Shown here piece after piece: positions 18,601-21,600 of a stretch of 64,000 nt of DNA. A program made the position numbers and the translations under genes. The stretch is from Raja brachyura (taxonomy: Eukaryota): the NCBI GenBank assembly GCA_963514005.1, contig OY740806.1, positions 13,020,001 to 13,084,000 on the forward strand. Direction: 5' to 3'. A model generated the notes under the pieces. It saw only the letters and a program-made list of their open reading frames with translations. It was not told the DNA's origin and did no database searches. The number at the start of each line of letters is the position of its first letter. Position 1 is the stretch's first letter.

Positions 18601-21600
18601 CCTTTGGCGCTTAGATCTCTCTGGCCCATATCCAGACATGCGTCCCATTTTCCCGAGCATCTGTAGGGTTGTACTATTTCTTTATGGGGCATTTGAGCAC
18701 ATCCTTGAATGTTTCCGTTTGTTCCTTTGCAGATCTTTTCCCATAATGGAACTCGGAATAAAGTCAGAACACCCATTTTTTATCAATATAATTAATAAGA
18801 GCACGCAGTGCCAGATTAGGTGGTATTGGTTTATTTTTGTTATGTGTCTGAGTTACAGTAAAAAAAAGCTTTGTTTTGTATGCAATCAAGTACAAGCCAT
18901 CCATATGATTTCAATCAAACCATGCAGAATATACTGTTACAGAGAAAGTGCAGATAAAAGAAAGAGCAAGGGGCGCAGCGACGGAGATTGGTGTTCGGAA
19001 ATGCAAACTTTTAGGGTGCTTCAGTTATCTAAGTGTGGGTGTGATTATGCACTCGATGCACTTTTCAATGATCCATACCAAGATCAATTTTTAAGATCAT
19101 ACTTCAAGCTGATTGTCATTCTAGTGAAATACTGAAGACTAAGCTGGTCTTTTTTCATCTGAGTGAGACCAAAGTAAATCAGGACCTTGTCAGTCTGTCC
19201 AAACCTCTCATAGACTCACTTAGTTACTAGCCTCATTTTCTCTCCTAACTAACATCAATTGCTGTTATCTCATGACTTTGATAACGACAGCTCAACTGTT
19301 GAAGCCTGTAATAGCTTTAAGACTGCTGTCATTCCAGGGTTGTCTTCCCAACTTCCCACTCACCAGACCCGAGTTTTGGTGGGAGAGAGCTATTATCCGT
19401 TCAAAATTGCAACTTGATTTTGTGGATGAAATGTCAGTAGTTCTGGTGTGCATTTGTGTGGTGCTGACTATCCACTCCCAGCACCTACCTCCCCATATAT
19501 TAATGCTGCAGTCCTAGCTCAACTCTTTAGCTGAGAAATTTAACAGTTTGGTTTACTTTACACAAATAGATTTTTCTCTATTTTAATATCAGACGATGCT
19601 AACGCTGAAAGGCTGAATAATAATGGTACTTAATTCATAGCTTCCTTAATAATTAAAATAATTTTTAATGGCTCAAGACTGTATATAGAAATGTCAATAA
19701 AAGATCACCCAGTGTCTACTAAAGATGCGATTAACCTGCTTTTCCACCCCCCACCCCCTCCCTCTCCCAACCCTTGATGTGCAGAGGGCACATTTTTATA
19801 TGATGCATAGGAATGCTGGTATAATTAGTGGATGCACCGTGAAATGATGGACTGGACATTTCACACAGTATAATCTTTATTGCTTCAGTAGCTTATTTTT
19901 CTTGCATGCTTCAAAGAGCCCTAATGACCATTATTGTGGAATCAAACTTATGTCATCAGGAACTGGATACATAATATTAAATATTTCCAGTGTCAATTTC
20001 CCAGTGTAGAATTTTAATCTTGCATATTGGAAGGCAAGTTCATGAAATGCAATAAATATAGGTTTTTAGATCAGTCTGACAAACAGGAAATGGGCTATTT
20101 TAGCTCCAGGACTGCGCAGTTATACATAATGACCCTATTGGAAGGGGACCTCTGTTAAAGTAATTGACCTTATGGAATTTTGTATTAATTTCAAAGCTAA
20201 TTCAAACCAATGCAAGACACAAAATGCTGGAGTAACTCAGCGGGTCAGACAGCATCCCTGGAGAACATGGGTAGGTGATGTTTTGGGTCAGGACCCTTCT
20301 CCAGACTGTGGGAGGGAGGTGGGGCTGTGGTTAAAGTACGCTAGAAGGGTCTATCCCATCTGCAATCTAACGCCCCCCCCCCCCCAAAATCAGTCTGAAG
20401 AAGGTTCCCAACCCAAAACATCATGTATTATGAAGACACAAATTTCTGGACTAATTCAGCAGGCCAGGCAACATCTCTGGAGAAAAGGAATAGGTGATGT
20501 TTGTGGTCGAAACCCTTCTTCAGACACAGAGTCAGGAGGAAGGAAGCCGGTCACAAAACGGTTCAGAACTGCATCTGCAGTTCCTTCTTACACATCTATC
20601 CATGTTCTCCAGAGATGCTGCCTGACCTGCTGAGTTATTCCAGCACTTTGTGTATTTTATTTGTGAAATCTGCTATTCCTTGTTTCTACTCAGAGCAATG
20701 CAAACTACATAGATATAATGGGTGGGTTGACTAACAGTTGGGAAGGTAATTTTTGTTTAAAGCTTGCGGATAAATATATCAAGTTGCATTTTTTGAAGAG
20801 TATAAAGCTTACATTGCATTGGACGAACAATCTAATTTGAAAAGGGGTTTGAAAGAATTGTTAATGAGAGTATCGAAGAATTGTTCATTGTTCAAAAAAA
20901 AAACTTAAAATCTTAGGATTTAGTTAATTTTCAGGTGTAGCAAAAGTTGACCAAGAAATTAAAAGCAATAAAATTGAATCATGTGCTAGAAATATAAAAA
21001 TGGATTAAAAGTTGATGTAGTTACTAAAAATAGCTTGGTAAATGCAAACATTGTCTCTGATAGGCAGAGACAGGAGGAACTTTCCAGGGAATAAAGGAAT
21101 GGCAGAGGCAGCACAAAACAAAATCATGTACCTTTCACAAGCAGAAATGGAATTACTGTTTTATGTCTTCAACCAGTGCTTCCTGACCCGATTAGTTTTC
21201 CTAATTTATTTTATTTGCTTTTTGATTTTTGTCAACTGAGAAATTAGTAGTGACAAAGATGAGGCAGTGGAGAAATTAGGTTTTAAAGAAGGAACTGCAG
21301 ATGCTGGAGAATCGAGGGTTACACAAAAAGCTGGAGAAACTCAGCGGGTGCAGCAGCATCAGTCTGAAGAAGGGTCTCGACCCGAAACGTCGCCTATCTC
21401 CTTCGCTCCTTAGATGCTGCTGCACCCGCTGAGTTTCTCCAGCTTTTTGTGTAACCCGAGAAATTAGGTTTGATTGCTCTCAGCATTTACATTGGAGCTT
21501 AAAAAGAGAGAGCCATAAAGACAGGTATATTATTGTGTATGTTCCAGACTTTCCTTATTTTAAAATGGGTTTGGAGGTTGAATAGCAACATAACTGATTC

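Follow-up and report, generated by a model that had tools for sequence, protein, structure and literature searches.

Insertions of endonuclease-positive (EN+) Penelope-like elements (PLEs) show a recognisable architecture, which we summarise here from published descriptions. Their pseudo-long terminal repeats (pseudo-LTRs) include an inverted, 5′-truncated copy adjoining the PLE and a tail of 30–40 bp that is often present at one end only (PMC8557442), and rotifer PLEs have a 31-bp tail, target-site duplications (TSDs) of 8–10 bp and head-to-head inversions (PMC3846280). The repeats of metazoan PLEs carry minimal hammerhead ribozymes, of which a published monomer did not cleave and dimers cleaved little (PMC4209133; the same background is summarised in PMC6765202). 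In an anole PLE, the protein, a predicted dimer, cleaves and extends both target strands, and reverse transcription begins internally on the RNA, at two sites between which the tail lies; its hammerhead needs protein, is dispensable for insertion in vitro, and its cut ends were not detected in RNA-seq (PMC11167929). Here we describe a 174-bp insertion at positions 21284–21457 (21270–21471 with its flanking TSD copies) of a 64,000-nt stretch of the Raja brachyura genome (assembly GCA_963514005.1, contig OY740806.1, positions 13,020,001 to 13,084,000 of the forward strand; hereafter the window), located in an intron of CDON. We consider it highly probable that it arose in one recent integration event of an EN+ PLE with a Neptune-type zinc-finger linker, in which only the pseudo-LTR was copied.

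The first-pass annotation of the window, made from sequence alone, had described this locus as a young hairpin-shaped element. Its parts are listed below, with unit positions referring to the 129-nt unit defined by a linear sister copy.

21270–21283, no strand: left TSD copy, 14 bp, 100% identical to the right copy
21284–21360, minus strand: tailed arm, unit 129 to 53, with its 3′ end at the left TSD; 77/77 identical to 49330–49406
21284–21315, minus strand: 32-nt "tail" (unit 98–129), on this arm only, predicted to be single-stranded in the hairpin
21316–21360, minus strand: inverted repeat of 45 bp, left arm; unit 97 down to 53
21358–21360, no strand: possible 3-nt microhomology at the head-to-head junction
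21361–21457, plus strand: tail-less arm, unit 1–97, with its 3′ end at the right TSD; 94/95 identical to 49280–49374
21364–21391, plus strand: minimal type I hammerhead core with a 4-bp helix II and no helix III loop
21413–21457, plus strand: right arm of the inverted repeat (unit 53–97)
21458–21471, no strand: right TSD copy

The two TSD copies match at all 14 positions. When 1500 random 174-nt pseudo-inserts were searched within the same box, none had an exact flanking repeat of more than 10 bp, the longest being 10 bp. The two arms of the inverted repeat are 100% complementary over 45 nt and lie 52 nt apart, with no open reading frame (ORF) sequence between them. The 32 nt at 21284–21315, which the first-pass annotation did not mention, separate the left TSD from the inverted repeat and have no counterpart on the right side. 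The folding z-score of the hairpin, −11, is a consequence of its perfect repeat and says nothing about function.

The unit of 129 nt is given by a linear sister copy at 49278–49406, which is flanked by a separate TSD of 12 bp (49272, 49408). The focal insert is composed of the reverse complement of unit 53–129 (77/77), followed by unit 1–97 (94/95, from unit 3); 171 of the 172 aligned bases are identical to the sister, and both outer ends of the insert are 3′ ends of the unit. Because the arms span unit 53–129 and unit 1–97, the 45-bp inverted repeat is their overlap (unit 53–97). Judged from these alignments, the family does not have the hairpin as its unit: the unit is linear and the hairpin a one-off overlap of two complementary DNAs (cDNAs) that would have been primed in opposite directions. 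From a conserved ATG at unit 54, a reading frame runs for 14 codons up to the inner end (21414–21457) and for 25 codons up to the tail end (49331–49406), similar to the 12 and 22 residues of a rotifer pseudo-LTR (PMC3846280). Because spacer lengths differ between subfamilies, this frame is not retained.

The focal insertion thus has a head-to-head partial repeat, a 32-nt tail at one end, a TSD without poly(A) and a hammerhead within the repeat. On these four of the five features compared, its sequence places it among PLE pseudo-LTR insertions, as a young insertion of a known kind; for the fifth, a repeat flanking an ORF for reverse transcriptase plus GIY-YIG, the window offers an old tailed arm beside an endonuclease remnant and a weak peptide match (below). 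The TSD, the perfect inverted repeat and the non-autonomous character (no coding capacity at this locus) reported by the first-pass annotation are all borne out, as is its proposed Penelope derivation, on the head-to-head arms, the one-end tail, the TSD and the PLE-type minimal hammerhead. Its claim of a young, recently active element is correct in relative terms, with arms and TSD perfect and the sister differing at 1/172 aligned bases. The hairpin as the element itself must be given up in favour of two overlapping arms of a linear unit. The orientation "sense to CDON" applies to the hammerhead core but is a result of the inversion; the tailed arm is antisense.

To place the insertion within its family we searched the window with a profile (nhmmer), which gave 24 matches at E ≤ 0.05 and none in the reversed window. 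A weak match at 10035 was dropped, an arm at 50376 found by blastn only was added, and two matches were merged as one interrupted arm. The resulting 23 arms are 54–100% identical to the young unit, and their 3′ ends lie near unit 91–101 or unit 124–132 (old ends were read by eye). Besides the focal insertion, the family includes the following copies.

49280–49406, plus strand: linear tailed sister, young subfamily; 12-bp TSD (49272, 49408)
27531–27660, minus strand: middle-aged subfamily, 86% identity; linear and tailed, with an intact core and a TSD of 11 bp
37640–37736, minus strand: middle-aged subfamily, 85% identity; linear and tail-less, with an intact core and a TSD of 9 bp that has a single mismatch
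50310–50408, no strand: two-arm head-to-head insertion of a tail-less arm and a tail only; 14-bp TSD, 4-nt junction microhomology
4090–4330, no strand: old two-arm head-to-head insertion, one tail
20212–20686, no strand: two nested old two-arm insertions, one tail each, with 20432–20595 within the right arm
34848–34987, no strand: old two-arm head-to-head insertion, one tail
36503–36701, no strand: old two-arm head-to-head insertion, one tail

Fourteen arms make up seven two-arm insertions. All seven are head to head, and each has exactly one tailed arm; the nine single arms are five tailed and four tail-less. Assuming a tail frequency of about one half, the chance of one tail in 7/7 is ∼0.008, with tail calls on old copies made by eye. 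The junctions differ among the seven. The overlap of the arms can be read in six of them and is at least 45 nt in four (4090, 20212, 21284 and 36503), with exactly one tail each; the event at 34848 likewise overlaps by at least 45 nt, but with an internal deletion. Exact TSDs of 11–14 bp flank young and middle-aged insertions (21284, 27531, 49280, 50310), and older insertions have degenerate candidates. Within the window the 174-nt hairpin occurs once, and no tandem arrays of the unit were found (0/9 rows of Tandem Repeats Finder, TRF, involve it). RNAalifold gave no consensus structure for 16 arms downstream of the hammerhead cut site. No description of the family was found in the literature searched; Repbase and Dfam, which lay outside that search, may well hold it.

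The ends of the arms show some further regularities. CA(T/C) is found within 0–3 nt after the tail at 8 of 11 tail ends (49408, 50410, 27529, 20594, 36702, 34849, 4328 and 56574) and opens the TSD in three cases with exact TSDs; the focal insertion is an exception. This suggests a target preference or a 2–3-nt priming homology at the tail start. Three tailed arms end at unit 50–53 (21360, 34920 and 26270, the last with an uncertain end). At this point the growing cDNA becomes able to pair with its own tail region, and synthesis may be ended by fold-back. The inner insertion of the 20212–20686 nest lies just past the hammerhead cut site (unit ∼33–38) and has a degenerate TSD.

Remnants of PLE endonucleases were detected at three places in the window (3154–3776, 61448–61588 and 55680–55995), two of which are set out here.

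3154–3870, plus strand: decayed PLE with CX4CX2C linker, GIY-YIG domain (stop codon, frameshifts) and C-rich 3′ region; ∼220-nt gap to a repeat arm
55680–56146: decayed linker/GIY-YIG remnant (minus strand) head to head with an old tailed arm (plus strand, ∼56045–56146)

The fragment at 3154–3776 matches Pfam GIY-YIG (PF01541, E 9.6e-6) and has chondrichthyan homologues. The CX4CX2C linker is present both in this fragment, which is not contiguous with the repeat arm, and in its homologues; a linker of the CX2-5CxxC type between reverse transcriptase and endonuclease is a feature of the Neptune clade, but is also found in Nematis (PMC8557442). At 55680–56146 the repeat arm matches the profile with E 9e-4, and the remnant gives tblastn E-values down to 9e-9, reached by 0/100 shuffles. 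In addition, the terminal peptide of a zebra-shark PLE protein (P0006), with its stop read through, agrees in 10 of 14 residues with the frame that runs through the insert's hammerhead, ∼120 residues past the GIY-YIG domain. Protein searches with the translation of a middle-aged copy gave no link of the repeat to an endonuclease; they returned a predicted little-skate protein (P0024, with an exonised copy), one spurious ORF of 54 aa and one unrelated repetitive protein.

We propose that the insertion formed as follows. The PLE's own protein, which combines GIY-YIG and reverse transcriptase (RT), would nick both target strands 14 nt apart, each 3′-OH serving as a primer. Top-strand synthesis would begin at unit 129, where the RNA's tail ends, and stop at unit 53; bottom-strand synthesis would begin 32 nt further upstream, at a second start site (unit 97), and run through to unit 1, the 5′ end. 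Head-to-head joining of these cDNAs would follow, probably via the 3-nt microhomology at 21358–21360; the same three bases are also found before unit +1 in three other arms (4199, 20392 and 27660). Gap filling would yield the TSD, and the 45-bp inverted repeat would be the stretch copied by both cDNAs. Such a 45-nt overlap would need either strand displacement or two repeat copies as template, supplied by two RNAs or by both repeats of a single transcript. What is observed in the window is the anatomy, the sister copy, the 7/7 pattern and the adjacency to a PLE remnant. The two start sites, the priming on both strands and the weak or protein-dependent cleavage of the hammerhead are carried over by analogy from the literature.

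The four youngest arms that bear a hammerhead (21361, 27660, 37736 and 49280) start within unit −3 to +7. The sequence at unit +1, just before the core, resembles an initiator motif. The Penelope element of D. virilis has an internal promoter (PMC2377424). The clustered starts suggest a hard 5′ end at about unit +1, that of a full-length transcript or of a short master RNA.

The hammerhead of the focal insert has all core bases, as the first-pass annotation had noted. C3–A9 are found at 21364–21370, followed by an extra A at 21371, helix II at 21372–75/21380–83 with a 4-nt loop, G12–A15.1 at 21384–87, a palindromic segment at 21387–90 and C17 at 21391, with the predicted cut after 21391. The core matches CUGANGAH, GAAA and NUH, has the G10.1–C11.1 pair and is palindromic at 15.2–16.2. 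A descriptor of the minimal hammerhead matched the window five times, whereas 100 dinucleotide shuffles yielded no match at all. No hammerhead match was obtained from Rfam at the gathering cut-off in the window; at E ≤ 10 the region 21250–21500 gave 19 matches, none of them a hammerhead, and the generic hairpin and miRNA models among them, all below cut-offs, are attributed to the perfect stem. A search of bacterial and archaeal contigs with the exact 28-nt core gave no match. The core is spanned by 12 arms, five of which keep all 11 core bases. Between the young unit and the old-subfamily majority, the hammerhead segment C3–C17 has 0/28 differences and the downstream sequence 11/60 (Fisher p = 0.011, uncorrected). 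Constraint on the hammerhead in the source lineage therefore appears likely from this comparison, though not firmly shown. In that lineage the hammerhead would be kept by selection and would most likely cut only as a protein-assisted dimer.

At the focal locus the core is predicted to misfold. Helix I consists of a U–G wobble and a G–C pair (2 bp), followed by two mismatches, and has a pair probability of 0.0 in the hairpin; that of helix II is ∼0.001. The hammerhead-ready fold lies 7.4–9.4 kcal/mol above the ensemble, and a double hammerhead reaches −6.7 kcal/mol, whereas the best fold of two strands has −27.9 kcal/mol. With G at position 1.1, a competing hairpin over the cut site is favoured: the predicted probability of helix II is 0.03 in the young subfamily, which has G1.1, and 0.46 and 0.90 in two middle-aged copies. 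The first-pass annotation had suggested that the long flanking stem might substitute for helix I. This does not hold, since the stem closes 3 nt before C3 and 21 nt after C17, so that no stacking is available at the cut. The focal hammerhead is probably a normal minimal PLE ribozyme and, on these predictions, a passenger at this locus. Cleavage of the CDON pre-mRNA at 21391 would be very unlikely, given the predicted misfold, the weak cutting published for monomers and dimers and the protein dependence of the anole ribozyme. A double hammerhead formed in cis with the sister 28 kb downstream is also unlikely, as the two lie in different introns and the local hairpin would form first.

We also considered cleaved RNA as a template, which would give arms starting at unit 32. 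The arm at 34931 starts exactly there, at the first base past the predicted cut and after an 8-nt filler. It is a single case, the only clear one among 10 truncated arms. A second candidate, at 20596, is the continuation of an interrupted arm, which weakens the idea.

Several observations weigh against the integration of an EN+ PLE as proposed above. The window shows no full-length member of the young subfamily, so that the autonomous partner is inferred, and the links to PLE ORFs in the window concern old subfamilies only. The P0006 match is weak when taken alone (it is reached by 67/2000 shuffles, and its C-terminal part by 28/2000), and another protein, P0009, scored higher (46 compared with 43) against a different frame. 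The sequence upstream of old arms agreed poorly with the two PLE 3′ regions of the window: in only two of eight comparisons was the score reached by ≤3/500 shuffles, and both involved C-rich sequence. For the anole PLE no strand-specific start site was seen in vitro (PMC11167929), which leaves the strict one-tail rule unexplained. Conservation of the core is also less clear in other comparisons, all uncorrected: core against the rest per column gives p = 0.14 (0.07 without CpG; one row is misaligned), old copies give p = 0.18 (0.04 without CpG), and the middle subfamily has 0/28 compared with 4/60 differences (p = 0.21). Finally, the folding energies leave aside tertiary contacts, Mg2+ and protein.

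The nearest alternative is a variant in which the same twin-primed integration used a dedicated ∼130-nt non-autonomous RNA from its own master locus, comparable to a short interspersed element (SINE) parasitic on a PLE. We regard this as a substantial possibility that falls short of even. The common start of the four youngest hammerhead-bearing arms would fit it, as would the ratio of short arms to ORF remnants (23 to 3), and both the weakening of the ribozyme fold by the changes in the young subfamily (G1.1) and the differing reading frame of the tail look as they would under relaxed selection. However, the same short run-off products result when RT starts internally, close to the 5′ end, on a full-length transcript (PMC11167929), the sense strand is without A and B boxes, and some old arms continue upstream into C-rich sequence. 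Less probable by far is an inversion by self-priming or fold-back on an antisense template, as argued for head-to-head repeats of rotifer Penelopes with junction palindromes (PMC3846280). The inner end of the tailed arm is indeed complementary to its own tail over 7 nt (21300–21306/21354–21360), but the focal junction has no palindrome and both outer ends lie at the two recurrent 3′ ends of the family. The arms at 50310–50408 do not overlap, like those from twin priming, and priming on both strands has been demonstrated in vitro for a PLE (PMC11167929).

That the locus is instead a SINE or retrozyme in the form of a discrete hairpin, with the long stem taking the place of helix I and with a ribozyme active in the CDON pre-mRNA, seems very unlikely to us. 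Every core base is present, published minimal hammerheads with a 2-bp helix I exist (PMC4209133 supplement), and the stem would keep the cleavage products together. Set against this, the hairpin is found once in the window and the same sequence also in linear form, the seven two-arm insertions have differing junctions, and the stem lies 21 nt from the cut, with the energy cost of the ready fold and the poor cleavage of minimal monomers and dimers (PMC4209133) given above. The retrozyme-like character named by the first-pass annotation also fails on tandem repetition, with none of the nine TRF rows in the window showing a tandem unit. The features of a tRNA-derived SINE, conserved A and B boxes at the 5′ end and an A-rich or simple-repeat 3′ tail, are absent as well. 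A tRNA-derived SINE read antisense, with helix II really a B-box hairpin, is an explanation we give hardly any credence. It could point to antisense A-box-like (two mismatches) and B-box-like (one mismatch) sequences ∼51 nt apart, but the B box has 2–4 mismatches in six of seven older arms tested, the A box has 2–3 mismatches in 10 of 11 arms, A-box matches in the window are at chance level (30 compared with 28.9), ARAGORN finds nothing, and there is no poly(A) or simple-repeat tail. Equally implausible is an assembly fold-back artefact or a DNA transposon of the miniature inverted-repeat transposable element (MITE) type. Perfect inverted repeats are typical of both, yet the TSD is exact over 14 bp, the repeat is non-terminal on the left (32-nt offset), and six older, mutated loci have the same architecture.

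Within the preferred reading, integration of a PLE primed on both strands, these short insertions may be a dense natural record of how the PLE integration complex works, and would fit a dimeric complex of RT and endonuclease holding two repeat copies, with one subunit at the tail start and the other at the inner start. We suggest tentatively that the same complex pairs two minimal hammerheads and that unit +1 marks the transcription start; if true, this would explain why minimal hammerheads need both a partner and protein. A further idea, that the unpaired 32-nt antisense tail acts as a toehold that captures tailed repeat RNAs in a 77-bp duplex and splints a hammerhead in trans, has a predicted gain of ∼54 kcal/mol but strikes us as far-fetched.

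The host gene was identified as CDON on the plus strand. The exon at 28836 matches named ray CDON proteins best (83% identity to Mobula and Hypanus, 67–80% to sharks), and 18 blocks of the Hypanus CDON protein map in order along the window.

17893–28835, plus strand: CDON intron holding the insertion, which lies ∼3.4 kb from the donor

The likeliest effect on the host is an intronic 45-bp double-stranded RNA. The insert contains an acceptor-like site at 21395–21413 (plus strand, sense to CDON) with 16 of 18 pyrimidines before the AG at 21412–21413, and a weak donor-like site at 21451; the resulting exon would fall inside the stem. The little-skate protein P0024, a beta-arrestin prediction, contains an exonised copy of the repeat with an 84% identical translation. 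Part of one CDON coding exon is repeated just upstream of it as an inverted copy of 41 nt with 95% identity (56671–56711/56942–56982); this copy abuts the 5′ end of the repeat arm 56574–56676, possibly by capture of local sequence during insertion. Other inverted-repeat elements lie at 9248–9507, 39941–40131, 51819–51876 and 48027–48163; three share a common motif, and they are probably a MITE-like family. ORF remnants resembling long interspersed elements (LINEs) are present in or near CDON introns at 2535–3059 (endonuclease Pfam match), 13287–13967 (no match) and 62298–62816 (ALKBH8_N match).

As an intronic repeat insertion the single locus matters little, at most as a presence/absence marker. 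The family is of somewhat more interest: judging from the ∼23 arms within 64 kb, some of them young and with exact TSDs, clean events of PLE integration are probably very numerous in a batoid genome. The end positions of this family could be used to test the choice of start site on each strand, the use of two RNA copies and the use of hammerhead-cleaved RNA as template by PLEs.

Twin priming in L1 produces a 5′ inversion, a TSD and microhomology at the junction. The focal insertion resembles it in all three, but has no poly(A), its arms overlap by 45 nt instead of abutting, and its ends lie at fixed RNA sites. With the non-LTR retrozymes of animals it shares a non-coding sequence, a type I hammerhead and a relation to PLE pseudo-LTRs (PMC7229834; bioRxiv 10.64898/2026.07.22.740005). 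Retrozymes are tandem repeats of ∼150–450 bp with mostly canonical hammerheads in these two sources, whereas the present family is dispersed, ∼130 nt long, single or inverted in the window, and has a minimal core.

The core itself is like the minimal hammerheads of metazoan PLEs, with the CUGANGAH core, G10.1–C11.1 and a palindromic 15.2–16.2 without loop 3, and like them it occurs in opposite-strand pairs and widespread solo copies (PMC4209133). Its helix II has 4 bp compared with 5–7 in most vertebrate examples listed there. Helix I has 2 bp, closed by U–G and with a mismatch next to it; some helix I stems in the supplement of that paper are also of 2 bp, and the part of the supplement that was searched contains no cartilaginous fish. 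Like the Poseidon element PAc of Anolis carolinensis (PMC11167929), the family has two recurrent 3′ ends ∼30 nt apart, an AT-rich target and the anatomy expected from priming on both strands. It differs in belonging to another clade, and the ORF of PAc starts at stem II, while here there is only the conserved ATG at unit 54.

The closest match is with the pseudo-LTRs of EN+ PLEs (Penelope/Poseidon, Neptune; PMC8557442, PMC3846280). No ORF sequence lies between the arms at the focal locus, unlike in these elements, and the TSDs of young copies are 11–14 bp compared with 8–10 bp in rotifer elements (PMC3846280). Shared with them are the head-to-head inversion, a 32-nt tail at one end, a TSD of similar size, a hammerhead inside the repeat and nearby GIY-YIG remnants with a CX4CX2C linker.

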